Shown here in pieces: positions 31,843-48,000 of a stretch of DNA of 64,000 nt. A program made the translations under genes and the position numbers. Location: the NCBI GenBank assembly GCA_902500205.1, contig GCA_902500205.1_4868.1, one strand, 5' to 3'. The notes under the pieces were generated by a model. It saw only the letters and a list, made by a program, of their open reading frames with translations, was not told the DNA's origin and searched no databases. The number at the start of each line of letters is the position of its first letter. The stretch's first letter is position 1. The stretch is from Escherichia coli (GTDB lineage Bacteria > Pseudomonadota > Gammaproteobacteria > Enterobacterales > Enterobacteriaceae).

Positions 31843-31888
31843 CCCTTACCCACTCCCGTAAGGGGAGTGGGTAAGCATTATTTATTTT
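31843..31888. terminator. bidirectional intrinsic terminator
   Basis: CTTACCCACTCCC-GTAA-GGGGAGTGGGTAAG flanked by A-run upstream and T-run downstream; sits between converging plus and minus genes. Confidence 0.7.
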
Positions 31889-32492: not shown

Positions 32493-33041
32493 ATGGCAGT
32501 TATCTCTGCAAAAGACCAACTCGTCGCGCTGTTTAATGCTGCAAACAGCGGGCTGTCCAGTCCGTTAACTTCTGCTGACGTTACATTCGGCGCTGTTGCT
32601 GACTATTCACCAGCTGATTCTGGAGACACTCGCAACTCCAAACTTACCATCACCGCCACTGCGGAATCCGCTAACTTTACTGGCGAGAAAGAGCTGCATT
32701 ATACCCGTCTCAATTCATTGAACATCATCGGTGCGAAAGCAGTGACCGCTGACCAGGCAGAATGGGATACCGATGATGAAGTGCTTGCTTTTGTCAACGC
32801 AGATCTAATTGCCGCCGGTAAAACGGAAGATGCGTTTGCATTGTCTGAACTCACCATTACACGCGAGGACGGCAGCAGTGGTGAGAAAATCATCACTGTT
32901 AAGGTGAAAGAAGGCCACATTAAATACCAACCTGCCAGCCTTGCTGTTTATACAGTAACGCAGCCAATCGTTAAAACCGACCTGAGCACCACCAATGGTG
33001 AACTGGACGGATTCGACGGCAAAGGTCACGCTGTCATGTAA
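32493..33041 (+). CDS. short family-A-like protein ending TTNGELDGFDGKGHAVM (182 aa)
   Basis: N-terminal pattern (..DQLVALFNAAN...GDTRNSKLTI...HYTRLNSLNII) and C-terminal NGELDGF motif link it to the 13-29 kb array. Confidence 0.6.
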   Translation: MAVISAKDQLVALFNAANSGLSSPLTSADVTFGAVADYSPADSGDTRNSKLTITATAESANFTGEKELHYTRLNSLNIIGAKAVTADQAEWDTDDEVLAFVNADLIAAGKTEDAFALSELTITREDGSSGEKIITVKVKEGHIKYQPASLAVYTVTQPIVKTDLSTTNGELDGFDGKGHAVM

Positions 33042-33077: not shown

Positions 33078-33118
33078 GTACCTACCTCCCTTCGGGGAGG
33101 TAGGGCCTTTATTTTCTT
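33078..33118. terminator. bidirectional intrinsic terminator (UUCG tetraloop)
   Basis: CCTACCTCCC-TTCG-GGGAGGTAGG with A-run upstream and T-run downstream; ends both the plus gene and the minus-strand operon. Confidence 0.75.
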
Positions 33119-33121
33119 TGC

Positions 33122-33793
33122 TTACATGCCGAGTGATTCGGACAATGTTTTTAAACCGGTGTAATCGCGCTTTTCAGCTAACTCACGGATTTGGCGTTTG
33201 TTATCTGCCATTGCTGAGTGCAACACCTGGTCGCGTGCAACAATAGCGCCCAACAACGCTTTACATTGGTCTACTGTAAACGGACTGTGCTTAGTATTCA
33301 GCGTATCGAGCCAGTATTCTGGTGCGGTATCTGCCTGAATGTATTGACCGAGGATGGTACGCGACGATTCATCGGCTTGAAAGTGACTACCTTCAAACTC
33401 GATATAACCATGACGCACATCTTCGTAGCGATGGTCAAGTTCCAACAGCATCTTCTGCACGTCTTCGTAAATGTAACGTGCGGTAGATTTCAGATTCCCG
33501 CGAATTTCGTCGAGGTCAATCTCCAGCACATTAGCAATAAACTCTTTCGTGCGTTTCAATGTGAAGTTAGCTTCAATCTCCGACATCTCATACAGCTTCA
33601 TGCGTGCCAGGGCTTCTTTATCAGACATCCCTTCGATGAGATGGTAATGGAGTAATGCACAAAATCCGGTACGACCCTGATCCTGCGCACCGATTCGTTC
33701 CATGAAATTGCCGTGACGATCAATCGGCAAATCACGCTGGAAATAACGGGCGCGGATCTCTTCGTTCGTTAAGCTTTTGTCAGTAACAGACAT
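33122..33793 (-). CDS. hypothetical protein, last gene of the rSAM/fibre operon
   Basis: ATG 5 nt after GAGGAGG; 223 aa; no assignable motif. Confidence 0.55.
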   Translation of the reverse strand: MSVTDKSLTNEEIRARYFQRDLPIDRHGNFMERIGAQDQGRTGFCALLHYHLIEGMSDKEALARMKLYEMSEIEANFTLKRTKEFIANVLEIDLDEIRGNLKSTARYIYEDVQKMLLELDHRYEDVRHGYIEFEGSHFQADESSRTILGQYIQADTAPEYWLDTLNTKHSPFTVDQCKALLGAIVARDQVLHSAMADNKRQIRELAEKRDYTGLKTLSESLGM

Positions 33794-34335
33794 TCGTCCT
33801 CCTCAATCAGGCCAAGTTCTAACAACAAACCGAAGTCCAGCATCTGGAAGTCCTGATCGAGGTTACCGGCCCACAACAGAGAAATGTTGTGTTGCTCTTC
33901 TTCTTCCAACTGCGGGAGCAGGTGTTCTTCGAAGATTTGACGTTCTGTGTAATAAGCGTCAACCGGGTTATTGGAGCGTAAGTTACGAATACGCATCCGC
34001 GGGAATGACAAGCCCAATGCCACTAAACTTTCAGGACTGGCTTCATCAATAGAGTGACGTAGCAGTTCGATTTTGTGGCGTGGGTATGCAAGCAGTCGCT
34101 TCTCAAAGCCAGGGTTGCGCTTTTCGATTTCCGCGACAGACTCGTGTCCTTTCTCAACGCAGTAGACCGGGATCATCACATTCAGCCCGTATTTAATCAA
34201 CAGGCTTTGGATTTCATCAGTGAAGTCTTCCCCTGCCACAATTGCGTGCACATTGTACAGCTTGCTTTTGCGCAGGAAGCGATCGACCAAGTGCAGTTTA
34301 CGCTTCGTAAAATTGTGAATCAGTATTGACTTCAT
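33769..34335 (-). CDS. hypothetical protein (188 aa) in rSAM cluster
   Basis: Start set at internal ATG (MKSILIHNF..) to limit overlap with upstream rSAM gene; acidic C-terminus. Confidence 0.45.
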   Translation of the reverse strand: MKSILIHNFTKRKLHLVDRFLRKSKLYNVHAIVAGEDFTDEIQSLLIKYGLNVMIPVYCVEKGHESVAEIEKRNPGFEKRLLAYPRHKIELLRHSIDEASPESLVALGLSFPRMRIRNLRSNNPVDAYYTERQIFEEHLLPQLEEEEQHNISLLWAGNLDQDFQMLDFGLLLELGLIEEDECLLLTKA

Positions 34336-35626
34336 TCTGGGCTCCGTTTTGTAATTTTTCTGCTTCAGCACGTTGGCGTACACAACGTGAACAATAGCAC
34401 ATGGATTTATCATGCAAATCTGATGCGCGGGTCGTACCAGTTTTCTGATACCAATATTCCGCCGCCATCAGCTTCGCAGTAGTCCAACCACACTGACGAC
34501 GTTCGGCGTGATACGCTTTACGGTCTTCCAGTGTACCTTCACCGTTTTCGTACGATGCTGCTGCGCAGCTACCGCAACTGTGTTTCATCGGACACCCTAA
34601 ACAGGTTTCTGGGTAGTTGGTGTACTGCGTTTGAATCTCTTCTAACAGCTTACCACCGTCCAGGCTCACAAACTCACGACCGACCAGTTCTGCTACAGCA
34701 GAACGGGAAGTTACCGTGGACATGAAACGGTTACAACCGTAAATCTTGCGATCAAAGCCGAGACAGGTCATGTGCGTCAACGTACCGCAGTACGGTTTCA
34801 GGCGTTCTGGGTCGAGACGAACAGAGTCGTCATGTAAGAGTTTGTCACGCCAATCCGGGTCCCAAGTTGCCATAAAGTTCAGGCCATCCGGGATGATGTG
34901 TGTAATCGTGTTACGCGGGTTGGTGTGCAGACCCTTCTCAATCCAGTAGTCCATCACGTCCATCATCTGGTTCGCGATATCCAACGCCATATGGCGCGGC
35001 AGGATATCTTCGTACGTTACGTTACCAGAGATGGTACCACCGCCGGACATGTCAATTAACGATTTCATGCTGGCGGCATAGTGCGGCAATGTATCGATCG
35101 TAAACGTCGCCTTTACGCCCAGCTCAGCGATGCCAACGCTCTTCAGGTAATTGTAACCGCGTACCGCAGCTTCGTACGACCCTTCACGCGTCGTGGTAAA
35201 GATACGATATTTGTCATGGACTTCAGGTAAACCATCGATGGAGACCCCAATAGACAGTTTGTCTTTCCAGCGCTCGATAATTTCTTTGTTCAGCGGTCGG
35301 TCCAGAAGTGTACCGTTCGTGGAGATACTGAACATATACGGGCGATTGTGTTCTGCGCATAACTTCTCTGCGGTTTCAAAGGCCGCCAAAAGAAGTTTAG
35401 GCTGCATGAACGGCTCACCACCGATGATATCGATGATGACTTCAACGTTCGGGATATCTTTATCGCGCTCGAAACAAGCGTGGATAAAATCAATCACGTC
35501 TGCTACTTTGTTGTTACGCGGATATTTACGCTCGTAGCAGTATTCGCAGTCCAGGTTACATGACAAGTTAGTCACAACCTGATACGTGCGTGGTGTGTAC
35601 TGGATTTGCTGTTCGCTATTACTCAT
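34298..35626 (-). CDS. radical SAM enzyme with SPASM-like C-terminal Cys cluster (putative peptide-modifying maturase)
   Basis: CNLDCEYC (CX3CX2C) near N-terminus, GGEP motif, and C-terminal CLGCPMKHSCGSC (Cx2Cx5Cx2C) plus further Cys, as in SPASM/twitch auxiliary cluster domains. Confidence 0.75.
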   Translation of the reverse strand: MSNSEQQIQYTPRTYQVVTNLSCNLDCEYCYERKYPRNNKVADVIDFIHACFERDKDIPNVEVIIDIIGGEPFMQPKLLLAAFETAEKLCAEHNRPYMFSISTNGTLLDRPLNKEIIERWKDKLSIGVSIDGLPEVHDKYRIFTTTREGSYEAAVRGYNYLKSVGIAELGVKATFTIDTLPHYAASMKSLIDMSGGGTISGNVTYEDILPRHMALDIANQMMDVMDYWIEKGLHTNPRNTITHIIPDGLNFMATWDPDWRDKLLHDDSVRLDPERLKPYCGTLTHMTCLGFDRKIYGCNRFMSTVTSRSAVAELVGREFVSLDGGKLLEEIQTQYTNYPETCLGCPMKHSCGSCAAASYENGEGTLEDRKAYHAERRQCGWTTAKLMAAEYWYQKTGTTRASDLHDKSMCYCSRCVRQRAEAEKLQNGAQNEVNTDSQFYEA

Positions 35627-36533
35627 TGTTCGCCGCCCGTTTACGCTTAGCAGAAATTACACGGTTGATGTAGTTATACGCATCAACGCCGATAGAACGC
35701 GCCAGGCGATTACAGCCGACTTCCAATATCTCTGGCGCGTTCTGAATTTGCTCCTGCGTACCGTCGGCGTTAAGCCACAGCACTTCACTGCACGTGTTGC
35801 ACTCGGTATCGAACATTTTACTGATCGCAAGCCCACATTCAGAATCGTTCTGCATGTTAAGGCGTTCGATATTGTCGAGTATTTTCCAATACCCGTACAT
35901 GAAGTTCATGACGTGGTCTGGCGATAACGGTTTCGGCATCATCGCATCAAACAGCAACGACATACCACCTGGACGGTAATGATAGATTGCTCGGTGCAGC
36001 TCGATGAAATCTTCGTACCAGCGTTTATCGCCTAACTGGTCACGCGTCATCACACCCCAGGTGTAATAGTTGTCCAGCTCGTACAGCACTTCCAGCGCTT
36101 CGTGATTACCACCGTTTACAAAGTTCATAAACGGACGTTCCGACTTCTTGTAGCCGTCAATGGACACAAAGATAAGGTCGAACTGTTTCAGCAACGGCAG
36201 ATGTGATTTACGCATCTTTAAACCGTTGGTGTACATGTGATGACGGAGGTTCGGATGAGACTCCTTCAACTCATTCACGAAGTCTTCAATCTTGCGCTGC
36301 GCTAACAGCGGCTCACCGCCCGTCCAATGAATCTCACCGATATCCGGATTCTTCTCTAAAATCGAGAGAATCTCTTCACGTTGAAACTCACGAGAAGTAT
36401 CTTCTCTATCCATGTAATAAGCCCCTCCACAGAAGCTACAGTCTAAGTTACACTTAGAAGTTGCGACAACCGACAGAATTGACGGTTTGTCGTACAGTTC
36501 AGACGAGATCCTGGATTCTACTTGATCTGTCAT
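35619..36533 (-). CDS. radical SAM enzyme (second, 304 aa)
   Basis: CNLDCSFC (CX3CX2C) and WTGGEPLL motifs; ATG 36533 (MTDQ..) after GGAG; C-terminal region has additional Cys (ECNTCSE). Confidence 0.7.
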   Translation of the reverse strand: MTDQVESRISSELYDKPSILSVVATSKCNLDCSFCGGAYYMDREDTSREFQREEILSILEKNPDIGEIHWTGGEPLLAQRKIEDFVNELKESHPNLRHHMYTNGLKMRKSHLPLLKQFDLIFVSIDGYKKSERPFMNFVNGGNHEALEVLYELDNYYTWGVMTRDQLGDKRWYEDFIELHRAIYHYRPGGMSLLFDAMMPKPLSPDHVMNFMYGYWKILDNIERLNMQNDSECGLAISKMFDTECNTCSEVLWLNADGTQEQIQNAPEILEVGCNRLARSIGVDAYNYINRVISAKRKRAANNE

Positions 36534-36555
36534 TGCAGGTTGCTCCAGTATATTT

Positions 36556-37443
36556 TTAAATATAATCAATGGCGAATAAAGGATCTTCGTCTACATTAGC
36601 GCCAGGCACCAGTAACATCGGGTCGTGATAGGCAGCTAAAATTTTGTTCAGGTCGGCATGTCTTTCGTTCAAGCGTTTCAAATCGGCCAACGTAACCGAA
36701 CGACTACGAATCTCAGAAACAGCTTCTGCTTCTTCTTTCGTTAAATCCACCTTCGTTAAGAGGAAGCTTACCAGCTTACTCAAATCCGCTTCTGTCGCCG
36801 GGTAATCCCCATATCGGGTTTGAACCAGGTGTTGCATCCACGGCTTACGAATACGTTTGGTGATTTCGAAATCGTCAGTCAGCGCATACCAGACAGAACG
36901 CTTTTTATCCCACACGAACTTATAGCTATACGCCATCATGTCCGCTAAACGGGTGATGCCGAGTTCTTTATATCCCTCGATATCGATGTACGGTTCGGTG
37001 TCGAAATACGTTTCCGTATCGGCAGGTACCAGTACAAAGTAGTAAGGGAATGAGCCCAGATAGTCCGGACTCCACCAACGGCGCGCCATCGGTTTTGCTT
37101 CGAGTTCGTCAAACGGTGTAAACATCAGTTCTAAATCGACACTGTTGTTCAAAATCCCTTCACTGAAGAAATACTTACCGTCGACTAACACGCCACGAGA
37201 GTTACCATCGCCGTTAAAGATAACGATGGCCTCTGCAACCATATCACGGATCTTAAACGTATTTTCTACGGTGTAGTTCTTCTTGTCGGTCAAGAAGCGA
37301 CCACGAACCTTTGGCCACTCACCAGGAATCTGTGCAATCAGTCTGACTTTGTCAGCGAGGTGTGCACGCACCGAATCTGGGGAAGATAGATGCAGCGGGT
37401 GGTTGAATGTGGTTTTATACGCAAGATGCAAATCGTTTTTCAT
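36556..37443 (-). CDS. hypothetical protein (295 aa) between precursors and rSAM genes
   Basis: ATG after GGAG; no recognisable motif; position suggests accessory or partner role. Confidence 0.5.
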   Translation of the reverse strand: MKNDLHLAYKTTFNHPLHLSSPDSVRAHLADKVRLIAQIPGEWPKVRGRFLTDKKNYTVENTFKIRDMVAEAIVIFNGDGNSRGVLVDGKYFFSEGILNNSVDLELMFTPFDELEAKPMARRWWSPDYLGSFPYYFVLVPADTETYFDTEPYIDIEGYKELGITRLADMMAYSYKFVWDKKRSVWYALTDDFEITKRIRKPWMQHLVQTRYGDYPATEADLSKLVSFLLTKVDLTKEEAEAVSEIRSRSVTLADLKRLNERHADLNKILAAYHDPMLLVPGANVDEDPLFAIDYI

Positions 37444-37465
37444 TTAATACTCCGAACGTTTTCTG

Positions 37466-37672
37466 TTATCGATTCCCCGCTCCACGGCTACAGCTTCCGC
37501 TGCAGGACCAGCTACACCCACCATTACAGTTATAGTGAGAAAGCGGTAAGCCAGCCAGGTTATTTGTGGTCGACACGGTGCCCTGGTTAGCGATATAGTT
37601 GTTTGCCTGTGCGGTTGTAATGTAACCTTCTGCCGTAACGAGACGGTTTCGAATAGTCTTGAGACTGATCAC
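37466..37672 (-). CDS. leader + Cys-rich core small protein 3 (68 aa)
   Basis: GTG start 5 nt after GGAGG; N-terminus MISLKTIRNRL.. parallels the two larger paralogs; core HYNCNGGCSWSCSGSCS. Confidence 0.55.
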   Translation of the reverse strand: MISLKTIRNRLVTAEGYITTAQANNYIANQGTVSTTNNLAGLPLSHYNCNGGCSWSCSGSCSRGAGNR

Positions 37673-37687
37673 ATAAGCCTCCGTCGG

Positions 37688-38092
37688 TTAGGAGTTAGGA
37701 CCTGAACAACCACCAGAGCACGCACCTGAGCAGTTTGCGGAGCAGGATTTACCACAACCCCCAGAACAGCTGCCTGTGCACGTGCCGCTACAACCACCAG
37801 AGCACGAAGAGCTACAGCCCGTGCAGCTGCTGCTACAGCCTGATACACAGTTTGCCGAACAAGTCGACCCACAACCGCCCGTAGCAGACCCAGTACATCC
37901 GCCAGAACAACTCGAGCAACTAAAAGAGCATGTGCCACCACAGTCATAGTGCGAACGGCCTTGACCTGCGAACAAGTCGGCGTTATTCGTAGCTTTATTG
38001 CGAATGTAGTTTTGCACATTCGTGGTGTTCTTTAAAGCGTTTGCATCGATCGCGTTTAATCGGTTATTCAGTTCTTTTAATCCAATTGCCAT
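37688..38092 (-). CDS. leader + Cys/Gly/Ser-rich core protein 2 (134 aa)
   Basis: N-terminal ~48 aa conserved with neighbours (MAIGLKELNNRLNAIDAN..); C-terminal ~85 aa is C-(S/T)-G-x-C repeats with about 20 Cys. Confidence 0.65.
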   Translation of the reverse strand: MAIGLKELNNRLNAIDANALKNTTNVQNYIRNKATNNADLFAGQGRSHYDCGGTCSFSCSSCSGGCTGSATGGCGSTCSANCVSGCSSSCTGCSSSCSGGCSGTCTGSCSGGCGKSCSANCSGACSGGCSGPNS

Positions 38093-38102
38093 TTAATCCC
38101 CC

Positions 38103-38495
38103 TTAGCGACCTGAACAGCCACCGGAGCAGGCTCCGGAACAACTGGAAGAACATGAGCCACCGCAACCACCTGTGCAGTTACCGGTACAGCTACTACTGC
38201 AACCACCAGAACAACCAGAGCAACCAGAACAGTTACCGCCACACGTCGAAGAACAGCTACCGATACAAGAAGCAGAACAGCTTCCTGAACAGCTCGAACA
38301 GCCATGCGAGCAACCGTTAGAGCACGTCCAAGAACATGTCCCGCCGCAATCTAGCTGTGTTTTCGTCCAACCCCCAAATCGGTCTGCCGCGTTATGGGCT
38401 TTAGAGGCCACTTGCGCGTCGATACGGGGGCCTGTCGCCATGTTAGCTTCGACTATCTGGACGCGGTTTCTGACGTCTTTAATAGATATCGCCAT
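38103..38495 (-). CDS. leader + Cys/Gly/Ser-rich core protein 1 (130 aa)
   Basis: ATG after AAGGAAG; MAISIKDVRNRVQIVEAN.. leader-like region, then DCGGTCSWTCSNGCSHGCSSCSGSC.. core. Confidence 0.65.
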   Translation of the reverse strand: MAISIKDVRNRVQIVEANMATGPRIDAQVASKAHNAADRFGGWTKTQLDCGGTCSWTCSNGCSHGCSSCSGSCSASCIGSCSSTCGGNCSGCSGCSGGCSSSCTGNCTGGCGGSCSSSCSGACSGGCSGR

Positions 38496-38496
38496 T

Positions 38497-38541
38497 ACGC
38501 TTCCTTAAAAAGTAGAACGAGCGGACTATGTCCATAAACAT
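38497..38541 (-). terminator. hairpin with partial T-run between fibre gene and Cys-rich genes (attenuator or partial terminator)
   Basis: On the minus strand GAGCCGGACTATG-tttatgga-CATAGTCCGCTC followed by GTTCTACTTTTT, immediately upstream of the first Cys-rich gene RBS. Confidence 0.4.
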
Positions 38542-38560
38542 AGTCCGGCTCGTAAACAAG

Positions 38561-39763
38561 TTACTTAGTACCCGCTTCAGCTTGAACATCGTCGCGCGAG
38601 GTGAGGTTGTTGTTAACGTGAACAGCAGCCTGCACAACACCGCCATACTGTTTATGGAGGTAATTCGGGTGTGGGTTATCCGCAGCCGCATGGTTCGCCA
38701 GATTCTGGTTTGCCTGCGAAATTGCGTTGGTGTTGTTTACAACCTGAGTTTTAAGACTGTTGATTTGTCCTTGCAGGTTATCAATTTGCTGTTGGAAGTC
38801 TTTGCCCTGATTCTCAAGATCCGTGACACGCTGATTTGTTTCATTCAGCGCAGACTGAAGATCGTTAACCTTCTTCTGTAATTGCAACACCAGAGAATTA
38901 AGGTTAGCTAATGCTAACGACATTTTCTGGTAATTTTGAGCAACCACGTTAAGCTGGTCGTTCCACGCGGCTAACGAAGCCACAATTGCATCGATGCGTT
39001 GCCCCAACGCTGTGTCTGCTGCTCTTAAGTCGCCGATATCTTTGATAGTGGCGTCAATGGCAGTCTGTACACTTTGAATCAGAGCACGAATCTCCGTCTC
39101 CGTCAGGCCATTAACCTGATGAATGTCGAGATTGTGTACGTTACCTTCGGCGTTGATGTGGGTATTTAAGGCGTCGAGGAAGTCGTTTTTCAGACCACCC
39201 AGAATACCTTTAATTTCTTCCAGCTGTACTGCAGAGCCGGAGTTAATCGCATCTTTAATCCCCGCGAGTACGGTAATGATATACTCAAAACCGTAGATAT
39301 CGCCAAGGTCTTTATACGTCGGTGCGGACGGGAACGTATCGGGTACGTTCCGAAGATCCTTGAAGTCCACCACGCGGTCTTCAATTTTCAACGACGCAAT
39401 CGCTTGTCGGATGCCTTCGACGTTCGCGGACTGAAAACCACCGACAACTTGCGCAGAGACTTCGATATCAGTAGGAATGGCCGTGTTAGTTACCACCACA
39501 CCCATGACCACTTCGCGGTTCTTGGTCATTTTCTGATATGCAGTATGTGCAAAAATCAGCTCGTAGTCTGTACCGCGTTTGTACGGGTAGACACCTGGTT
39601 TATTCGCAGCCGCCAAGCGGAAGGTATCCGCGTAGAAAGCTCCGTCAGGAAATGCAAAAGCCCGGTTAACTTTACCAGAACCTAACGTAATACGCCGCGT
39701 AACGGCGTTCGACGTTAATGTCCCGGTAAGGTCGAGCGGGTACTGATAAATGATTTCGGCCAT
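38561..39763 (-). CDS. tail-fibre-like coiled-coil protein (400 aa)
   Basis: ATG 39763 (MAEIIYQ..) 7 nt after AAAGGAG; N-terminal module shared with the three giant proteins (..AFYADTFRL....G.DYELIFAH); Gln/Asn/Leu heptad coiled coil in C-terminal third. Confidence 0.65.
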   Translation of the reverse strand: MAEIIYQYPLDLTGTLTSNAVTRRITLGSGKVNRAFAFPDGAFYADTFRLAAANKPGVYPYKRGTDYELIFAHTAYQKMTKNREVVMGVVVTNTAIPTDIEVSAQVVGGFQSANVEGIRQAIASLKIEDRVVDFKDLRNVPDTFPSAPTYKDLGDIYGFEYIITVLAGIKDAINSGSAVQLEEIKGILGGLKNDFLDALNTHINAEGNVHNLDIHQVNGLTETEIRALIQSVQTAIDATIKDIGDLRAADTALGQRIDAIVASLAAWNDQLNVVAQNYQKMSLALANLNSLVLQLQKKVNDLQSALNETNQRVTDLENQGKDFQQQIDNLQGQINSLKTQVVNNTNAISQANQNLANHAAADNPHPNYLHKQYGGVVQAAVHVNNNLTSRDDVQAEAGTK

Positions 39764-39810
39764 TGCCAAACTCCTTTGATTGGGGCTTCCTTGCCCCATA
39801 GCGCTAACTG

Positions 39811-42800
39811 TTAGGTACGGAACATAAGATTGACCTGGATAATATCAGGCTGTTGCCATCCTCTCTCGTTCACCCAATCGTGCGCAATCGTTAACGTAAG
39901 ATCATCGCCATCCCACGCCACGATCGGCGGTGGGAATAAACCCTGAGCGCCCGTGGTAACAACCGGAATTGCACCCGCCACATCCACAAACGTGTAGCTA
40001 CGGCTGTTCAAAACAACTGGTGTGCCGTAGGTCTCTCCCCCCAATGGTAAGATTTGAATCTTACTATCCGAAAGATCGGTGGTGATTGGTAGTCCCCCCG
40101 CGTCCGTGAAAAGCCAAGAGCAAATATGCTGGTTGGCCATCTCAAGCGCTGGGGAACTCAACACAGCAGAGAAAGTAAACGTACATGGCACGCCTGCGGG
40201 CAGAGAGTGCTGTTTGTGATACACGGTATGTGGTGTTGGCATTAGCACTTCTGGATTTTCTTCAATGTTAACATCCTTACCTTCCGCCTCGACGTTGTAT
40301 AAAAATCTATCTACCGTATCCCATGGGGCGATGTTGACATTAAAGGTCGTTTCTACTCCCGGTGTACCTGGGACGACGAATTTACTTTGTATCACCACTA
40401 TCATCATTCCTGAGGTCGGAGAGAAAGCAGGCGTAGGGATACCCACCCACTCCATTCCCAACGATGCCGCTTCACCGTTCTCATCGGCCGTTACCGTCGC
40501 AATTGTTGTAGGATGTTTCCAAAACGCCCCCGACTTGTTTGCCTGAGTAAACGCCGGCAAAGTTTTCAAGCCTTCGAAACGTTTGGAGACCATCGGTTTA
40601 CCGCGACGCTGTGCGTCAGATACGGTATAAAGCAACTGACTATCCAGATAGCCTTTCGTAGCATCGATAGACAAAGGACCCATCGCTTCTTTACGCAATG
40701 GTGCCAGTCTGCCCGTTGCCGCATCCCTTCCCACTTCCACATCATGCTTATTCTCAACCGCCGCATGTTCCAACAGTTGTTTCACCGCCCCCAATCGCTT
40801 AGCATGTTCGACGTTAGTCTCGACGACTCGCGACGAGCCCGTTTTAACATACCCGATATAGAGTTCCGTTTCAGTGTCTGGATGTTGAATCACGTCCATT
40901 ACGTACTTCGGTGTACCATTTTCTACCTTGGCGTGCAGGTAGAATGTCCGGTTCTGATGGTTTGTTGGAAATGCTGCGCTGAGGTCAATATACCACGTAG
41001 GCAGCTTATAAGTGCTCGAGCCGAAACGCAGGTCAACTTCCTCAGTCACATATACCAGCCAACCTTCAGCTGTTTCCACACCAGCAATGACAACCGATTC
41101 AGTCGGGCCACTAAAATTAGGAGCCGCGACAAAATCTCTCGACGACGTTGCGATACCACCACAATAGACGTAGTCGAGAGATGAGTTGTGTAGCATCACC
41201 TGATCACGATGAGCCAGATAAGCTGGGCTGACTGGAGTGTGTGACGGTGCCATACGTCCAACGCCGTGTGGAGCAGAAGAACGCGTCCAGGTACCATTAG
41301 ACAGCGTAAGACCAACAGCGTAGTTAAGCGCACCCAAGTCGCCAATCAGGCGCAAGGTTAACGTGTGTGGAAGATACAACCCGAACTGCGTACCATCTAC
41401 CGACACCAGTGTAGGTTGTCCCGGCCGGCGTGTTTTTCCTCCCGTTATCTCACCCAACGTAGCATAGTTCAAGTCATAGTCGAGGTTGTTATAGAAGTCA
41501 AACAAAGCCAATATCGCTGCGGGGAATGTTACCTGCCCGTTGCTGATTGTTGGTTTCAGTGTAAAGTAGTAGATATCCAACACGTTAACGTTGTTCACAG
41601 TACGCGTACATGCTACTTGTGCTAACGTGAGCGGTGTGGCCGTACCAATGCCGATGAACCAAACGGAGAACAATGCCTTTCCTGCGTTATTTGCGGCAAG
41701 GATAAATTCCGAAGCATAACCATTCGCAGCGCCTGCCGGTGCACCGTCGATGATCATCTGCTTCATCTTATTCCATTCGGCTTGTGACAGCGTCAACCGA
41801 TCGGCATGAATCGTGAAAGTGCCAGAAACGTTGTGGTAAGGGAATGTTTCTGGCCCTGTGCAATACCAGCCGTTTAACTCTGTACCAGGCGACGCCGGTG
41901 TAACAATGTGGCACATCTGCGACAGATTCTCGTACGTGGTAGAATCCACTACACGACGATTGTTAGTTGGTCCATACCCCGCTTTACCTGAGTAAGTGGT
42001 GTTCGGATCAAACTCAACTTCAATTGCCAAACGGGAACGTGGCTGTGACAACCAGATAAGTCTGGAATTCGCTCCCAGAGTCAGCGGATACGCCATACCC
42101 AGCTCGTAGATAGAACCACGACCTTGGTTTAACGTTACCGCACTAAACCTTCTGGCAGTGAAGTTGTAGTCGCACGACAGGTACTCGTACCAACTCACAC
42201 CGTCGTCTAACGTGGTAATCGTGACAATTGGCATTAGGTCACGATCGCCGGCATGTCCTTGCGAAACGATATATTTGTCTTGCGATGTTGCAAAGGTTTG
42301 GTTATTAGCTTGACCTTCGCCCCACTTCCGGCTCGGAATCCCAATCTCAGCACCACCGTTATAACGAACCGCGGTAAGATCAGCCACAATAGGGAATCGA
42401 TCAGCCCCTTCCAGCGTTACCGTCATTGAACTGCAATCAACAACAAAGCTTGACACCCATTGTTTAAAGCTAATCGTCTGCCCTGTGCTGGAGGCAAACC
42501 AGACTGTTGGCGTTAAACCAACACGAAATTTCAGCCCATCAACACCAATCGCGTGATTACACTCAGGACCATGTACAAAGTTGATTGCATTGTTCCACTT
42601 CGCTAACGCGTCTGCGTAGATCTGTGTAACTGGTGCTGGGAGCGCATCGGAAGGTGCACGTTTCTGTCCCTGTCGCAGATAAACGTTTTCACCCGACGTT
42701 AATATCCCGCCTGTTAACGCATCCGCCACAAACGTGTTGCTACCACCCGGATTAAGTTCGTTGAGTGCGATGCTACGCATACTCACGAAATAGTTACCGG

Positions 42801-44994
42801 AGGTAAGCACCGTACGCAACAGGTAGACACGTTCATTACAAACAATCAAATCGTCTGTAGAAGCGTTTGGAGCCCACGGTGCTGTCGTTACTGTGCCCGC
42901 ACCATTACCGTTCTTGTAATCACCCAACACCACTTTAACAACACGATGATGTTTTGCATGGTCAATCGTCCCATCGAAGATGACCAAGTAGTACGCACCG
43001 TCACTGCCTAAGCAGATCATTGCATCTGTACCGGTAATCACAATAGCAACCAGATTCACCCCAGGATACGCCGACATTCCAGCGGGTCGATAACGTACGG
43101 ACGTCTGCTGCATATTTTCCAGCGTATTGCTTGGCGACACATCGGCATAGGCGTAATAGATAGTCCAGTCACCTGGTGGATTCCCGTTAGAACCGTTACG
43201 GAGCGAGTAAACCTTACCAGACTCGTAACGCGCCAAACCTTTCTGCCAGGTTTGGTTTTTGGTATACCCTTCGTAGTTCCCCTGGACTGGTATAGGCAAG
43301 AAGTTATTGTTGCCGTACGATGATCCGCCGACAGTCCATGCGGGCAACAGCGTAGCAATCTTGTCATTCAGTGTGTCAATCTTTTGTTCAAGCAAGAAGC
43401 CCTGACGCGAAGTGACCATCTTATCCGAGGTAGTGTCGATTGCATCCCACAGTTTAGCCAAACCTGTAACAGACGTGGATGCGTACGGCACGTTATCGAG
43501 ATCTGCAATGGTGTGGGTGTGCGTTGTAAGCGCTTTGCCTGATAGCACGGTACGCAATGCGTTAGTAACTGGCTTTTCTAACGGTCCGGTATTGTTCATC
43601 TTCTCAATACCGAAATCTGCCGCGGTTAAGGTCAGATGCATCTGCCCGTTTGAATCTAATACAAACCCTTTACCGTTGACTGTATACGTGTCGTCCACAT
43701 ATCCGTCGAGTTTGTTCTTCAAGTCAGTAACAGCTTTTTGGGAAATCGCTGTGGACGCTGCAGCGGACGCCGAAAGGTTAGTAATCGCAAACAAACCCTG
43801 CACAGTTGTGGTTGCTGCAGGCAGCTCCGCATTCATGTAAAGTTTGTTTGTTTCTTTACCAGAGCCGTAAATCTTCAACGTGTCGCTGGACTTGAAGTAG
43901 GCGTTTGCTGGAAGTATCTTCACCGAGGTCAAGTACATCTTAACCATATCCGGTGTAACAAGATACACGCTATTATACACAGGTGCAAGCACACCCGCAT
44001 CATAATCGCCCCACTTGTCACCTGCTTTACCCGAGTGAACCCAAAGCGTGTTCAGACCAGCACTGAACTCCGTAGCGATGCCCGGTTCGTTGTTATCCTG
44101 GTCAGCTTTTAATACCAGCGGTTTTGTCGAGGTGATGATGAACTTCTCACCCTTCATGCTGATAACGTGACCAGACGTTGTTTGGAACGTAATCGCGTCG
44201 TTATTCAGAACACGCATACGGCCCAGTAAATCACCCAGGGTATTATCCAGAAGCATGTCAACGTGTTTCTGTTGGATGCCACTGGTAGACATTAACGTCA
44301 CTAGCTCTGCCAGGGTACGTCCGAATGCCTTAGTCGCATCTACGGCTTTGCCGAGTACCGGGAGAGCGCCAATGTCACCGCAGGTGTAACCATGTGCATT
44401 TTTAATCAGGTGGTGTTGATACATTTCGTCATCAAACACCTGCTTACCGTTCTGATAAATCAAATCGGTAACTTCGGCAAAAGCCTCATCCAGCTCGTGG
44501 GCGCGCTCTAAAATACCCAGACGGATATCTTCCAACGCCTTTACGATTTCATCGCGAAGAATCGCTTCTTCGAGGTCTTTTGGCGGGTCGATTGGCGAGA
44601 TAATCGGCGGATATTTCATCAGCTCAGACCAATCGCAGTTACGCGGGTCTTTCATATCTGTCTTAACCAGATACTTGCCGATTTCAGAAGCAGGGATGCG
44701 ATACTGTCGACCAACCGACAACAACTCGTATTCTACCTCTGTGGCGTTCAGCAGCATTATGCTGCCGTATATTGCATCGTTCTCAGCCTCGGCTAATTCC
44801 TGGAAGTAATGTCCTAGGAAATAATCGAGACCTTCTATTAACTTGCGTTTGGTTCCGGTTGTTTTATCGGTAACGGTTAACGTTAACCCGATGCGATAGA
44901 ACGGTGCTTCGACGGGAATGACCGCCGAATAACGGTTCGGGTAAGTAGCGGTACTGAGCGTACCGTTAAACTGCGCCGCATCTTCTCTCGGCAT
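39811..44994 (-). CDS. giant tail-fibre / receptor-binding-like protein (1727 aa)
   Basis: ATG 44994 (MPREDAAQF..) after AGGAG; shared N-terminal module (APFYRIGLTL...GLDYFL); fibre-type motifs (TTTVQGLFAIT, ISQKAVTDL, HTHTIADL). Confidence 0.75.
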   Translation of the reverse strand: MPREDAAQFNGTLSTATYPNRYSAVIPVEAPFYRIGLTLTVTDKTTGTKRKLIEGLDYFLGHYFQELAEAENDAIYGSIMLLNATEVEYELLSVGRQYRIPASEIGKYLVKTDMKDPRNCDWSELMKYPPIISPIDPPKDLEEAILRDEIVKALEDIRLGILERAHELDEAFAEVTDLIYQNGKQVFDDEMYQHHLIKNAHGYTCGDIGALPVLGKAVDATKAFGRTLAELVTLMSTSGIQQKHVDMLLDNTLGDLLGRMRVLNNDAITFQTTSGHVISMKGEKFIITSTKPLVLKADQDNNEPGIATEFSAGLNTLWVHSGKAGDKWGDYDAGVLAPVYNSVYLVTPDMVKMYLTSVKILPANAYFKSSDTLKIYGSGKETNKLYMNAELPAATTTVQGLFAITNLSASAAASTAISQKAVTDLKNKLDGYVDDTYTVNGKGFVLDSNGQMHLTLTAADFGIEKMNNTGPLEKPVTNALRTVLSGKALTTHTHTIADLDNVPYASTSVTGLAKLWDAIDTTSDKMVTSRQGFLLEQKIDTLNDKIATLLPAWTVGGSSYGNNNFLPIPVQGNYEGYTKNQTWQKGLARYESGKVYSLRNGSNGNPPGDWTIYYAYADVSPSNTLENMQQTSVRYRPAGMSAYPGVNLVAIVITGTDAMICLGSDGAYYLVIFDGTIDHAKHHRVVKVVLGDYKNGNGAGTVTTAPWAPNASTDDLIVCNERVYLLRTVLTSGNYFVSMRSIALNELNPGGSNTFVADALTGGILTSGENVYLRQGQKRAPSDALPAPVTQIYADALAKWNNAINFVHGPECNHAIGVDGLKFRVGLTPTVWFASSTGQTISFKQWVSSFVVDCSSMTVTLEGADRFPIVADLTAVRYNGGAEIGIPSRKWGEGQANNQTFATSQDKYIVSQGHAGDRDLMPIVTITTLDDGVSWYEYLSCDYNFTARRFSAVTLNQGRGSIYELGMAYPLTLGANSRLIWLSQPRSRLAIEVEFDPNTTYSGKAGYGPTNNRRVVDSTTYENLSQMCHIVTPASPGTELNGWYCTGPETFPYHNVSGTFTIHADRLTLSQAEWNKMKQMIIDGAPAGAANGYASEFILAANNAGKALFSVWFIGIGTATPLTLAQVACTRTVNNVNVLDIYYFTLKPTISNGQVTFPAAILALFDFYNNLDYDLNYATLGEITGGKTRRPGQPTLVSVDGTQFGLYLPHTLTLRLIGDLGALNYAVGLTLSNGTWTRSSAPHGVGRMAPSHTPVSPAYLAHRDQVMLHNSSLDYVYCGGIATSSRDFVAAPNFSGPTESVVIAGVETAEGWLVYVTEEVDLRFGSSTYKLPTWYIDLSAAFPTNHQNRTFYLHAKVENGTPKYVMDVIQHPDTETELYIGYVKTGSSRVVETNVEHAKRLGAVKQLLEHAAVENKHDVEVGRDAATGRLAPLRKEAMGPLSIDATKGYLDSQLLYTVSDAQRRGKPMVSKRFEGLKTLPAFTQANKSGAFWKHPTTIATVTADENGEAASLGMEWVGIPTPAFSPTSGMMIVVIQSKFVVPGTPGVETTFNVNIAPWDTVDRFLYNVEAEGKDVNIEENPEVLMPTPHTVYHKQHSLPAGVPCTFTFSAVLSSPALEMANQHICSWLFTDAGGLPITTDLSDSKIQILPLGGETYGTPVVLNSRSYTFVDVAGAIPVVTTGAQGLFPPPIVAWDGDDLTLTIAHDWVNERGWQQPDIIQVNLMFRT

Positions 44995-45026
44995 TGCAAA
45001 CACTCCTAATCTGTAATAAAACGGAG

Positions 45027-45056
45027 ACCGCCCTCCCAATAACGGAAGGGCGGTTT
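45027..45056 (-). terminator. weak intrinsic terminator between giant fibre genes
   Basis: ACCGCCCT..AGGGCGGT hairpin followed on the minus strand by CTCCGTTTTATT; likely partial read-through. Confidence 0.4.
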
Positions 45057-45089: not shown

Positions 45090-48000
45090 CTAAGAGGCCC
45101 ACTCACCCGAGTTGTTGCCTTCGTTTCTACGTTCAGTATCCAACGTTTGTAAAATCCAATCCCATGTCCTGGTGGGGATGTGGAATGGATTACGCTTCTC
45201 AATGAGAATCGTTTCGCCACCAGTGCGAAGTTCCACCGGTGTCGTTTCAGTAATCACGAACATCGGATTACCACTACTACCTACGCCATTAATAGTGAAC
45301 TTCGCTTGCAACGGCGGCACAGAACCTTCCGGAGGCACGAACACGATGTGAATTGGCTGCATCGGTTTCGTGCGGGCAAGAGTCCTGGATATCTGAACAG
45401 CTGTTGTCGATGCACTGAAAGGTATAACATTACCCGGAATTTTCTCACTACCCACGATGATATATCCAGGGTAGTTAGAGAGCATTGTCCCATTTACCGA
45501 CACAAAACGCTCAGTTTGAGTTGGGCGATAAGCCCGCATAAAGCCGTACTTCCATTCACCACCGTTAGACGTATAGTCTGCAGGAGCCGACTCAAGTAGC
45601 GGAGCACCACGTTTCTGCAGCCCTTTATAAAACGGCGCTGGGAGTTTACCGTTCGGTGCAAGTTCCGGATAACCCTCACTTGCAGCAGACATCGTGATGT
45701 ATTCCGTAACCGGGTGATCAACGTTATCTCCAAATGACGCAAAAGGTACCGTTGTTACTGTCATCTCCTCGTGGTCGGAAGACTGTCTATCTGGCGTCCT
45801 TTCAATATACGACTCAAACAGTGAACGTAAATAATGGAAACGATTTATATCCACATCTGAGATGATCGGCTGCATCAAACCGTGGTTAATAGTCACGTTG
45901 TCTCGAGTTTCAATACCGGAAACGTGGATGGCTAGCGCCCCACCTTTAAAGTAATCGATCGCATCAAACGGAATGTCGTATTCCATTTCGTAAACCTGCA
46001 CCAGCGGATTGGCTATCAACTTAGAAACCATTGAGATGCGCAGTACCTGCGTATCAACAATGTATCGATAACGTACAAGCCAACGATCTCCAAGCGGCGC
46101 AAGCTCACTATCGGTATGAACCGAAAGAAAATCTAAACACTCGGTAGATTGGCTCGTCAGGTTTTTAATTACCCTCGGATTTTCAAGCACCTTATTTGTA
46201 ACACTGCCCTGCGTGGTCGAGATGATGCCTCCAGTTGCTTGGTTATAAGGAGACCTGATGAAGCCACAATTCAATTCTGGACGATTGCCACTCCATCTCA
46301 GTACCCTAGTCATGCTTTTATCATCTGCAGACGGGGCCATGAAGTTTAATGTGATATCGCGAACGCGAACTGTTTGTGCTTCCGACAAATCAACATCGAC
46401 CACCACAGAACCTTCAAACGTCGCCATCCCTTTTTCTTTCGGGTTGCTTGGTGTAAACCAGCAGTACGGTGATGCGCTTTCTGTGGAGACAACCGCTCCA
46501 ACAAACACTAGGCTTGAAATGGTACTATCAAATTTATAATCGAATAACCCTCGGTCTAATCGAATATAGTGGTTACCAGAAACTGGACTATTAGGGTACG
46601 CATAAAGCCACTGTTTAGGCAACGGATCGACTTTGTTTAGCGGTAACATTTTTGGGTTATCCGTCAACGACCAGTCGGCATTACTCACTCCGTGCGCCAG
46701 ACGTGTTTCGAAGTGCCGTTTAAGTTCGGACGCCATGCCAAAATCAAACGTCGTTTCAAACTCGTAAGTCGTACCTGCAACCAATCCCGTCTCGGGTACA
46801 TCAATATGTCCGATATAGCCGCGTTCCAAGTTAATACCTTCCGTGTCCACAATAGGTTCGGCGCGCGAATATAACGCATCGGTTATCATGTTCACATAGA
46901 GGTAATGCCTTAAACCATTCGGCGTCTTAACAAACTCCTGCAGGCGGGCAACTTTGGTGTTTTTATCCGAGGCCCCAACCGCAAAGTCACCGTCGTAAAT
47001 TGTGAAACGAATTGCGGCTGCTTTAGCGCTATCGTTACACTCGGCACGGAATGCTAAGCAGTGTTGCTTCCACCCCTCCTTGACAGTCGCCTCCAGATAC
47101 CCCGCTTCTGTAATACCCGCACCGATAATTTCACCGTCCAGATAAACAGAAACAGCACCACCGCCACGAACCCAAATCCGTAGTTTACCAGAGTCGCAAC
47201 GAACCCACGTTTTCGCCAAGAGGTTAACGACTGACAAATCACCCATTCCGGTTGTCGTTAAACCAATCTGCGCACCGTAGTTCGTTTCCGGGACGGCAAC
47301 CTCAAACCCACTAAAATCAATACCGTCACCGATATTAATTACCGCGTTCTGCCACGTTCTTTCCATACGGTTATCTGGAGAGAACCACTGGAACATCGGG
47401 GTGGTTTGCAGGTCTATCGAACCAGATACCGTCCCCTCTTTACGTGCACCATTTAACAGATAGAAATAATTCAAATCCGTTACGGCGAGGGTGGTACGTG
47501 TAGATCCCACAGTCCAAGTCTTACCACGCACAGCGGCAAAATCGGTCACGGAATCCTCTTTCGCGTTTGCTAGCGCAGCTGCAACTACGTCTAAACGTTT
47601 TGACAAATCGTTCAGAACGTTCGGGGTAACGCCGCGATTACCCGACAAGCCGTTTAGGTTGGTAGAATATCGAGCGATACCGGGAACTGTTTGAGAAGCC
47701 GTTGGGATCTGTAAATCGGCGAAGTTGTGATGGTGACCTTTATCACTAAGACCGGTAACTGCTTCTGCCAACGCATCAGAAAGTGGTTTATCGACGTCAG
47801 CTGTGTTATCAGCCAAGTCTAAACCTAAATCCTTTTTCGTCAGCGTTCGACTACCAGTGTTCATCGGCTGGTTATTCAGCAGCGTTGTCTTCCTGACGTA
47901 CGAAGACAGGTCGCCCTCATACGGCAAAAGCGCCGACGGGGTGACTGCTTGTCCCTTGACTACATCGCTCGGCTTATCAGTCAGCGTCACAACGCCTGGT

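Follow-up and report, generated by a model that had tools for sequence, protein, structure and literature searches.

The locus lies in the window (the whole 64-kb stretch of DNA analysed here), which represents an SPN3US-like jumbo phage (98–99% identity); the host group of this giant phage is Salmonella/E. coli. Downstream of four fibre genes on the minus strand follows a cassette of three Cys-rich ORFs (CysA, CysB, and CysC), a 295-aa protein, two radical SAM enzymes (rSAM2 and rSAM1), and proteins of 188 and 223 aa, closed by a terminator (Table 1). The first-pass annotation of this DNA had described the fibre genes, the Cys-rich paralogs, the enzymes, the three further proteins, and the terminator, and all of them were found where it had placed them. 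The cassette is flanked by virion fibre genes on one side and a DUF4376 protein on the other; close by is a gene with a tail assembly chaperone annotation. The fibre gene immediately upstream encodes a protein labelled virion structural protein in the SPN3US annotation (gp167), and its synteny is kept in all eight loci of the SPN3US group.

Table 1. Features of the fibre block and the adjoining cassette in the 64-kb window.
Feature	Position	Strand	Description	Remarks
Four fibre genes	52946..49233, 49220..45090, 45039..39811, 39799..38561	−		match SPN3US gp170 to gp167
gp167-like	38561..39799	−	coiled-coil fibre/virion protein, 412 aa	gene immediately upstream of cassette
Stem-loop	38507..38553	−	16-bp stem (38517-38553) and U-rich tail	between gp167-like gene and CysA
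CysA	38103..38495	−	CXXX-repeat protein, 130 aa, 21 Cys	PHROG 6085, 9e-41
CysB	37688..38092	−	CXXX-repeat paralog, 134 aa, 20 Cys	PHROG 6085, 3e-41
CysC	37466..37672	−	short paralog, 68 aa, 4 Cys	PHROG 6085, 3e-24
gp165-like	36556..37443	−	accessory protein, 295 aa	orphan fold
rSAM2 (gp164)	35619..36533	−	radical SAM enzyme, 304 aa	CNLDCSFC, GGEP; PF04055, 58.6 bits
rSAM1 (gp163)	34298..35626	−	rSAM-SPASM enzyme, 442 aa	CNLDCEYC, GGEP, CLGCPMKHSCGSC
gp162-like	33769..34335	−	188-aa protein	PHROG 7988; synteny in SPN3US group only
gp161-like	33122..33793	−	223-aa protein, DUF4376 domain	PF14301, 35.4 bits (cutoff 25)
Terminator	33081..33104	both	bidirectional, intrinsic; 10-bp stem, 7 GC pairs	T-runs on either strand

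The stem-loop preceding CysA folds with a minimum free energy of −28.8 kcal/mol (z −3.2) and is equally placed in eight related phages; the stem sequences differ, and a UAUG in or beside the loop is conserved. A terminator/attenuator function is possible, as is that of a signal for a phage polymerase. The cassette had initially been regarded as co-transcribed with the fibre genes. Adjacency and common strand hold, but strict co-transcription is not established because the conserved stem-loop with its U-rich tail separates the two. At the distal end, the bidirectional terminator serves the cassette on one side and gp160, which is convergent with it, on the other.

Both enzymes exceeded the cutoff of the Pfam Radical_SAM model (PF04055; 58.6 bits for rSAM2 and 55.6 bits for rSAM1, cutoff 29.5), which upholds their recognition from CX3CX2C and GGEP motifs, and profile comparison identified rSAM1 as a full rSAM-SPASM enzyme. 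Its best family match was the CXXX-repeat maturase TIGR04115 (3e-36; 125.6 bits vs. a cutoff of 350), and it matched PapB over the full length (NF047865, 1e-32, positions 12–319 of 330; 113.6 bits vs. a cutoff of 340); in the NCBIfam comparison it stayed under every family cutoff. The best solved relative of the rSAM1 family profile was the thioether maturase CteB (PDB 5wgg; 4.3e-35, residues 105–426); the alignment extended from the rSAM core through the SPASM domain, whose cysteines were in register. The match to anSME was significant but weaker (6e-17). The eight auxiliary-cluster cysteines are conserved over 16 homologs with identities down to 32%. An RRE is absent from rSAM1, which begins at the rSAM core, and the N-terminal RRE domain of CteB is unmatched, the alignment setting in only at CteB residue 105. 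These similarities support placing rSAM1 in the neighbourhood of thioether maturases (CXXX-repeat maturases, PapB, and CteB), and it is probably the maturase of the CXXX-repeat proteins beside it.

In rSAM2, C28/C32/C35, C245, and C274 are invariant, and the C-terminus is divergent with two to three conserved cysteines. Comparison with NCBIfam (MoaA, QueE, NrdG, and viperin, all near 40–45 bits) and with PDB yielded only matches to the generic core. Its position adjoining rSAM1 is conserved in two other loci (L004 and L020). The 295-aa gp165-like protein has no similarity to NCBIfam families and might be a substrate-handling or assembly factor. The 188-aa protein is restricted to the SPN3US group and had zero matches in Pfam, NCBIfam, and PDB. 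For the 223-aa protein, no PDB match was obtained, and PHROG matches to tail proteins were weak (phrog_2837, "tail protein", 2e-3).

In CysA, a helix at the N-terminus is followed by a junction motif of fibre-like type (NAADRFGG...LDCGGTCSWTC) and then by a ladder of cysteines. CysC shares the N-terminus and junction with CysA and CysB and is without the long ladder; it is missing from the CR5-like branch, and one of its relatives (P0195) runs on into a C-terminal domain of ∼140 aa. The alignment with PHROG 6085 takes in both the repeat and the segment that precedes it. The distance from one cysteine to the next is four residues in 36 of the 42 intervals of the Cys-rich paralogs, far above chance. 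Two ORFs in the whole window contain at least seven cysteines at ∼4-residue spacing, and a screen of the 64 kb for such runs revealed no further ORF beyond the cassette. CysA scored 19.6 bits with TIGR04114 (cutoff 20); a structural model of it (AF2) was unusable (pLDDT 42.6). Sequence comparison thus supports assigning CysA, CysB, and CysC to proteins of the CXXX-repeat target kind. Paralogy and the conserved N-terminus had been recognized before; the third protein is a short form with four cysteines, and the core is not simply hypervariable: across eight phages, 21 of 21 cysteines of CysA are invariant, compared with 10 of the 60 remaining core columns. The exact retention of 21 cysteines suggests that the structure is a defined one.

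The pairing of a SPASM enzyme with a Cys ladder is not confined to this phage. A CXXX-type ORF (at least seven cysteines, ∼4-residue spacing, same strand) was present within 3 kb of the rSAM1 relative in 72 of 80 viral loci (median distance 844 bp) vs. 8 of 80 generic bacterial rSAM-SPASM loci used as comparison set; enzyme and CXXX protein thus co-occur near-obligatorily in viral loci. The viral pairs usually lie amid tail or baseplate genes, and among 15 further loci with a PHROG functional category for the neighbours tested, 11 had neighbour genes scoring as tail, baseplate, or fibre; some relatives have non-tail surroundings (L020, L021, L023, and L065). The first-pass annotation knew of no such locus co-transcribed with tail-fibre genes; in fact, many phages have the arrangement in their tail modules. 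In a Deferribacter prophage, gp165-like, rSAM2-like, and rSAM1-like (38% identity) genes lie downstream of a GpJ-like tail protein, and the substrate (302 aa) carries HxHDDRYYTE fibre repeats and ends in KATNADQLGGQAGSYYRCSDCSWTCSSSC(xxxC)n (compare KATNNADLFAGQGRSHYDCGGTCSFSCSSC in CysB). In a 213-kb phage, the gene adjoining a T4 gp13-like gene encodes a fibre-like protein of 568 aa in which the same junction occurs along with the Pfam PF27846 Cxxx repeat, and in further loci the repeat is fused to a 940-aa protein or an F5/8-type-C-like domain.

Among the closest known systems is the CXXX-repeat target system of NCBIfam/TIGRFAMs (TIGR04115; TIGR04114/TIGR04117; Pfam PF27846), in which an rSAM-SPASM gene likewise stands beside proteins with cysteine at every fourth residue, and PF27846 also occurs in homologs of the phage targets. 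The phage version differs in the distance of rSAM1 from the equivalog cutoff, in targets that have a fibre-like N-terminus and are sited in the tail-fibre block, and, in the SPN3US-like lineage, in the addition of an orphan-fold protein and a further rSAM. To our knowledge, the definition of the reference system is purely genomic, with uncharacterized chemistry; a literature search for it returned no paper. PapB introduces Cys-X3-Asp β-thioethers into PapA (the ranthipeptide freyrasin), which is likewise made of repeated C-X3 units. A conserved acceptor residue like the Asp of PapA was sought in the Cys-rich cores and is absent, the SPN3US cores containing neither Asp nor Glu as acceptor; moreover, the phage substrates are 130 aa long with 20–21 cysteines, whereas PapA is a short peptide and the SCIFF substrate of CteB has six cysteines in 45 residues. 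The His-Xaa-Ser system (HxsB/HxsC, HxsD) resembles the cassette in its set of components: two rSAM enzymes, of which one is SPASM-type and the other smaller, together with an accessory protein and a substrate with a short-period repeat. Nevertheless, the scores (rSAM1 vs. HxsB 5e-21, rSAM2 vs. HxsC 6e-12) are far under cutoff, the phage repeat is CXXX instead of HXS, and gp165 has no counterpart in NCBIfam.

What, then, does the cassette produce? It had been read as a RiPP locus with leader-core precursors. According to such a scenario, the ∼48-aa N-termini would be leaders, the cores would be cross-linked by the rSAM enzymes, and a host or other protease would free bioactive peptides at lysis, with bacteriocin-like, signalling, or anti-competitor roles. 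The small size of the precursors, their occurrence as several paralogs conserved at the N-terminus and variable in the core, and an enzyme neighbourhood made up of RiPP maturases, are in keeping with it, as are bacterial relatives adjoining small precursors (59–100 aa) that resemble ordinary RiPPs (e.g., the CXXX peptides of L093 from Clostridium botulinum and L097 with three paralogs). However, no RRE was found in rSAM1 or the 295-aa protein, no peptidase or exporter was detected in the cassette with Pfam, NCBIfam, and PHROG (the 295-, 188-, and 223-aa proteins being an orphan fold, without matches, and DUF4376, respectively), targets reach 940 aa and are hence not peptides, and the exact number of 21 cysteines in eight phages and the tail-module context common to unrelated phages fit poorly. 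Furthermore, the presumed leader together with the junction has its homologue in the interior of long (200–570 aa) fibre-like proteins ending in the same Cys repeat. Because the CXXX domain forms the C-terminus of such proteins with the same junction motif in several phages, the "leader" resembles the stem of a fibre rather than a RiPP leader. Release of peptides is, therefore, considered unlikely.

Similarly improbable is that the modified proteins act inside the cell and outside the virion, be it as transient scaffold or chaperone of fibre assembly or as a host-takeover or metal-handling factor. The flanking DUF4376 protein, the neighbouring chaperone-annotated gene, the relatives in non-tail contexts, and the conserved hairpin, which may cause expression unlike that of the fibre genes, would agree with such a function, as would the published virion proteomes of SPN3US, which list gp160 and gp167 to gp171 (gp167 with 69–89% coverage by MS), whereas 161 to 166 are absent. 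This absence carries little weight, because the SPN3US annotation lacks CysA and CysC, the "gp166" call is an out-of-frame ORF over CysB, the searches were run against a local SPN3US protein database, and the cores are nearly devoid of tryptic sites; unannotated or mis-framed ORFs could not have been detected this way. The covalent junction of the CXXX domain to fibre-like or receptor-binding-like proteins elsewhere also suits a purely transient role poorly. Very unlikely is that the cysteines remain unmodified (structural or metal-binding, via disulfides or metal-thiolates) and the rSAM enzymes conduct other chemistry (formylglycine formation, nucleotide/cofactor chemistry, or modification of another fibre protein): the generic matches of rSAM2, the anSME relationship of rSAM1, and the missed family cutoffs would permit it, but the SPASM enzyme is linked to CXXX proteins, thioether maturases outscore anSME and any non-peptide family by far, and rSAM2 and a gp165-like protein accompany the cassette into a distant prophage.

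The reading favoured, with some reservation, is that the cassette is a maturation system of the tail-fibre module, which installs cross-links in a fibre-associated Cys-ladder domain. That gp163 acts on CysA, CysB, and CysC is very likely; their being virion components is somewhat favoured, and for thioether formation as the chemistry the case is evenly balanced. Of the two outcomes envisaged at first, a cross-linked virion-associated peptide or a bioactive one, the comparative data favour the former. The three proteins would be small and fibre-like, a short N-terminal helix and the fibre junction motif being followed by a shaft in which every fourth residue is cysteine. The RRE-less gp163 would work in the host cytoplasm, which is reducing and Fe-S-competent, and would abstract hydrogen atoms and join Cys sulfurs to carbons, within one chain or between neighbouring chains, giving thioethers as with CteB and PapB; in the SPN3US-like lineage, gp164 and gp165 would assist. 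The product would be a rod or tip that is held by covalent staples, insensitive to redox conditions, and incorporated in or attached to the baseplate/fibre apparatus. Covalent or metal-mediated reinforcement has precedents in the isopeptide chainmail of the HK97 capsid and in phage fibres with collagen-like or HxH metal-binding repeats. Common to these and the cassette would be the covalent or metal-mediated strengthening of a short-repeat virion part; there, however, the links are autocatalytic or metal-mediated, whereas the cassette would use dedicated radical enzymes. The pairing of enzyme and Cys ladder beside tail genes of many unrelated phages suggests that part of phage fibres is enzymatically stapled.

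In its 5.6-kb cassette region, the window shares 98-99% identity with Salmonella phage SPN3US and E. coli phage EC001 as well as with ∼30 further jumbo phages of Seoulvirus, and ∼80% with additional Salmonella and Erwinia phages. According to SPN3US numbering, the cassette comprises gp161 to gp166 and lies downstream of gp167 to gp170. In published SPN3US work, gp168, gp169, and gp170 are baseplate/tail-fibre candidates, and gp167 was detected in virions by proteomics. The gene set proposed in the first-pass annotation was found in its entirety on the minus strand, with the genes closely packed or overlapping (see table). Of the other products, gp161 contains a DUF4376 domain but has no sequence match in the PDB, and gp162 is without a match in Pfam, NCBIfam, or PDB. 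Beyond the cassette, a 163-aa lipoprotein-like gene (MKRLFIVFAFISLLTGC..., with lipobox; 31878-32369, minus strand) is isolated between bidirectional terminators (31845-31875 and 33081-33104) and adjoins the gene of the abundant virion protein gp160 (32493-33041, plus strand).

Features of the Cys-rich protein/radical SAM cassette in the window
Feature	Coordinates	Strand	Length
CysA (Cys-rich protein)	38495..38103	-	130 aa
CysB (Cys-rich protein)	38092..37688	-	134 aa
CysC (Cys-rich protein)	37672..37466	-	68 aa
gp165-like protein	37443..36556	-	295 aa
rSAM2 (gp164)	36533..35619	-	304 aa
rSAM1 (gp163)	35626..34298	-	442 aa
gp162	34335..33769	-	188 aa
gp161	33793..33122	-	223 aa
Bidirectional terminator	33081-33104		

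Both enzymes are radical SAM proteins. They contain the motifs CNLDCEYC/GGEP (rSAM1) and CNLDCSFC/GGEP (rSAM2), score 55.6 and 58.6 bits against PF04055 (threshold 29.5 bits), and the three cysteines of CX3CX2C are invariant in both alignments. The SPASM-like C-terminus ascribed to rSAM1 was borne out as well: C280, C288, C298, C342, C345, C351, C354, and C379 are conserved among 16 homologs, and in the profile built from these, CGt...YGCNRF and eCkeCplkesCs.sC align to the SPASM region of CteB. The Pfam SPASM model (PF13186) gave no score for rSAM1 at E ≤ 0.1. The match of the profile to the CteB structure (5wgg; 4.3e-35) spans CteB residues 105-426 and places the SPASM cysteines in register; the match to anSME is at 6e-17. 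As the alignment to CteB begins after the N-terminal RRE of the latter, rSAM1 lacks this domain. Its best NCBIfam families were TIGR04115 ("radical SAM peptide maturase, CXXX-repeat target family"; 3e-36) and then the ranthipeptide maturase PapB (1e-32, almost full length), followed by lesser matches to HxsB, anSME, SCIFF, CefB, and other peptide maturases, every one scoring far under its curated cutoff. Thus, rSAM1 is not a member of TIGR04115 (125.6 bits versus ≥350), although this is its best family, nor of the PapB family (NF047865; 113.6 bits versus ≥340), and the C-X3-D/E acceptors of PapB substrates are absent. Within the jumbo-phage clade, rSAM1 carries a C-terminal extension (34298-34420 in the window) that includes a further CxCxxC motif (CYCSRC in the window); the extension is missing from shorter relatives and could be an additional metal site.

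In the C-terminal part of rSAM2, where a SPASM/twitch enzyme would carry the cysteines of an auxiliary cluster, C245 and C274 are invariant, and C248 is present in most sequences. Matches of this enzyme in NCBIfam and PDB were confined to the generic core, none being family-specific or C-terminal. Identity with QueE, NrdG, MoaA, or viperin was rejected, because only the generic N-terminal core was matched (39-45 bits versus cutoffs of 131-284).

The three Cys-rich proteins, whose genes each have a good Shine-Dalgarno sequence, share an N-terminus of ∼48 aa, followed by cores with 21 (CysA), 20 (CysB), and 4 (CysC) cysteines, which are spaced by exactly four residues in 36 of the 42 intervals. 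The residue after Cys is mostly Ser, the following one mostly Gly; Asp and Glu do not occur in the cores, and Lys and Arg are almost absent. In eight phages, with rSAM1 identities down to 63%, each CysA ortholog contains exactly 21 cysteines, all of them aligned, whereas just 10 of the 60 non-Cys core columns show no variation. Tandem repeats in the genes are barely detectable at the DNA level (scores 38-67), which argues that the Cys pattern is maintained at the protein level; recent repeat expansion was rejected on the same grounds. Against TIGR04114, the three proteins scored 19.6, 17.1, and 13.7 bits (cutoff 20), and the Pfam family PF27846 (Cys-rich CXXX repeat) is precomputed on the homologous proteins P0168-P0178 and on the 568-aa protein of locus L005. 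An AF2 model of CysA (9-sequence alignment) had a pLDDT of 42.6, with the N-terminal helix alone at moderate confidence, and yields no structural inference. A profile of the N-terminus plus the junction to the Cys-rich core hit just 29 of 1.84 billion representatives, and one of these, the RTX-like P0218, was spurious. Another representative, P0195 (210 aa), combines a CysC-like N-terminus, the junction, and four cysteines with a β-rich C-terminal domain of ∼140 aa, the layout that would be expected for a fibre with a distal knob.

Phage tail regions likewise encode the nearest rSAM1 relatives outside the SPN3US/PhiEaH2/CR5 group, which show 33-39% identity. A Deferribacter abyssi prophage contains, in this order, a GpJ-like tail protein, three ORFs, a 302-aa fibre-like protein, homologs of the 295-aa protein (BLASTP 1e-9, HMM 2.6e-12) and of rSAM2 (1e-14), and a SPASM enzyme. 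The 302-aa protein contains HxHDDRYYTE fibre repeats and ends in 'KATNADQLGGQAGSYYRCSDCSWTCSSSC(xxxC)n'; at the matching position, the junction of CysB reads 'KATNNADLFAGQGRSHYDCGGTCSFSCSSC'. In a 213-kb metagenomic phage, a T4 gp13-like gene precedes a 568-aa fibre-like protein, which ends in the junction shared with CysB plus 28 cysteines (PF27846), and two radical SAM genes follow.

A scan of IMG/VR confirmed 185 relatives of rSAM1, from which 80 loci were retained. At 72 of these, an ORF with at least seven cysteines at ∼4-residue spacing was present on the same strand within 3 kb (median 844 bp), and for most of the remaining eight, a CXXX ORF was present in stop-to-stop reading. The CXXX proteins of the viral loci vary in length between 65 and 940 aa and contain as many as 63 cysteines; some additionally carry an F5/8-type-C-like domain, others a repeat region at the C-terminus. 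PHROG 6085, the family of the SPN3US Cys-rich proteins ("unknown function"), can be aligned to these proteins, and the alignment takes in part of the segment preceding the repeats. In the window, 1.8-2.5 kb separate rSAM1 from the CXXX genes, which lie on the same strand, the same pairing as in the TIGR04115/TIGR04114 system. That system is genomically defined but chemically uncharacterised, and the pairing of CXXX repeats with radical SAM enzymes is already contained in NCBIfam and Pfam models. Scanning contigs of bacterial genomes returned mainly generic rSAM-SPASM proteins, with CXXX ORFs at only 8-10 of 80 loci and small CXXX peptides (59-100 aa) in a minority, and is for this reason uninformative as to the prophage-borne fraction.

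For 22 further loci, the largest neighbouring genes were surveyed. Matches to tail, baseplate, or fibre families were found in 11 of these loci (L029, L037, L042, L045, L054, L057 (weak), L058, L060, L068, L074, and L080), four had only non-tail neighbour functions (L021, L023, L053, and L065), and no functional neighbour family was found in seven. The majority of these phages encode the SPASM enzyme alone; outside the SPN3US group, rSAM2 and the gp165-like protein occur only in the Deferribacter prophage and a single 279-kb phage. Several cassettes deviate in composition. In L017 (4543-5454; 83% rSAM1 identity), an additional rSAM2 paralog is inserted between CysA and CysB, so that the cassette has three radical SAM genes, and L060 (2973-12281; 246-kb viral contig) has four of them together with three CXXX proteins (140, 551, and 421 aa), after a tail-fibre gene. 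L020 (6883-10074; 279-kb viral contig) carries a variant cassette in a non-tail context, directly after a 909-aa helicase-like ORF: a 97-aa protein ending in ...GCESCAMGCHGPQ, the gp165-like protein, the rSAM-SPASM enzyme, and rSAM2, the two enzymes being swapped. In L029 (10026-13257), a collagen-like tail-fibre gene and then a reverse transcriptase (phrog_1423) lie just downstream of the cassette, so that a diversity-generating retroelement may act in this fibre module.

As the genomic linkage is strong, enzyme and CXXX protein are treated here as enzyme and substrate. The first-pass annotation read the locus as RiPP-like (sactipeptide/ranthipeptide), with leader-core precursors and their radical SAM maturases inside a tail-fibre operon. 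This reading fits the locus poorly, as no RRE (PqqD-like) was found and none of the eight products belongs to a peptidase or transporter family. The supposed leader makes more sense as a minimal fibre stem, because it contains a short helix with a heptad-like pattern, because its junction motif also occurs inside long fibre-like proteins, and because the locus is without the leader-handling parts of RiPP systems. We therefore favour CysA, CysB, and CysC as a structural target, that is, as a putative Cys-ladder shaft or tip of the fibre apparatus; in other phages, the CXXX domain is fused to fibre-like proteins. This ladder would be modified by gp163 in the cytoplasm. By analogy, the chemistry is most likely thioether formation, because this is the reaction of the nearest characterised enzymes, CteB and PapB. 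A conserved side-chain acceptor was not seen, and nothing but the next Cys recurs at a constant distance from every Cys; links to the backbone (α-carbon), from Cys to Cys residue, or between chains would be compatible with this pattern. That many tailed-phage lineages (jumbo enterobacterial phages, the Deferribacter prophage, and numerous metagenomic viral contigs) install thioether or related cross-links in their own fibre Cys-ladder via rSAM/SPASM enzymes is proposed tentatively, as a serious possibility still somewhat short of probable.

Cotranscription of the cassette with the fibre genes, also part of the original proposal, is plausible from the operon-like arrangement. However, a stem-loop (38507-38553, minus strand; 16-bp stem, U-rich tail, dG -28.8, z -3.2) lies between the gp167-like gene and CysA, and transcription of the cassette may thus be attenuated or separately initiated. 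A hairpin occupies this gap in all eight related phages (L007-L017), with differing stems but UAUG kept in or beside the loop, and a U-rich tail on most copies. This comparison relied on single-sequence folds, since RNAalifold gave no consensus owing to alignment register. The element could be a terminator/attenuator or a signal for the phage RNA polymerase. Another terminator-like hairpin (45023-45054, minus strand) lies across the TTG start region of the gp168-like gene (1742 aa); therefore, the four fibre genes may not be a single transcription unit either.

Published SPN3US virion lists pass from gp160 to gp167, gp161-166 being missing. The SPN3US records lack annotations for CysA and CysC, and "gp166" (JN641803/NC_027402 143409..143744; L002 7646-7981; 111 aa, MCKTTFAIKL...) is an out-of-frame call over the real 134-aa CysB gene; several long mirror or alternate-frame ORFs cover the Cys-rich genes. 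The virion lists, thus, do not decide whether CysA, CysB, and CysC are present, as the database searched had these ORFs unannotated or in the wrong frame and the cores are poor in Lys and Arg. Tryptic peptides expected from the N-termini include VQIVEANMATGPR, IDAQVASK, LNAIDANALK, NTTNVQNYIR, and ATNNADLFAGQGR. A collection of 15 billion proteins contains identical rSAM1 from 598 contigs and the 68-aa CysC from 230, but not the exact CysA and CysB sequences of the window; a whole-database search for CysA homologs returned only 16 proteins. Because gene callers miss or mis-frame the two long Cys-ladder ORFs, these proteins are invisible in phage proteomics and protein databases alike, which exposes a systematic annotation gap.

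Under the label "putative radical SAM superfamily proteins," genes of the cassette have stood in sequence databases since 2011, and full-text searches of the literature retrieved no paper on the pairing of CXXX repeats with radical SAM enzymes in phages, on a fibre role, or on SPN3US gp161-166. The fibre-associated biological reading of this known pairing is unusual. It is directly testable, as SPN3US serves as a genetic model for which amber mutants exist and proteomes of virions and of infection have been archived. If true, this would be the first case of a virion structural protein matured posttranslationally by a radical enzyme, and the uncharacterised CXXX-repeat/rSAM family would gain both a substrate and a role in biology. 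The "CXXX-repeat rSAM target" family, hitherto filed as RiPP-like, would largely be a phage fibre module. Such maturation would also represent a new principle of virion assembly: covalent reinforcement that radical enzymes install in the cytoplasm, whose reducing conditions preclude disulfides.
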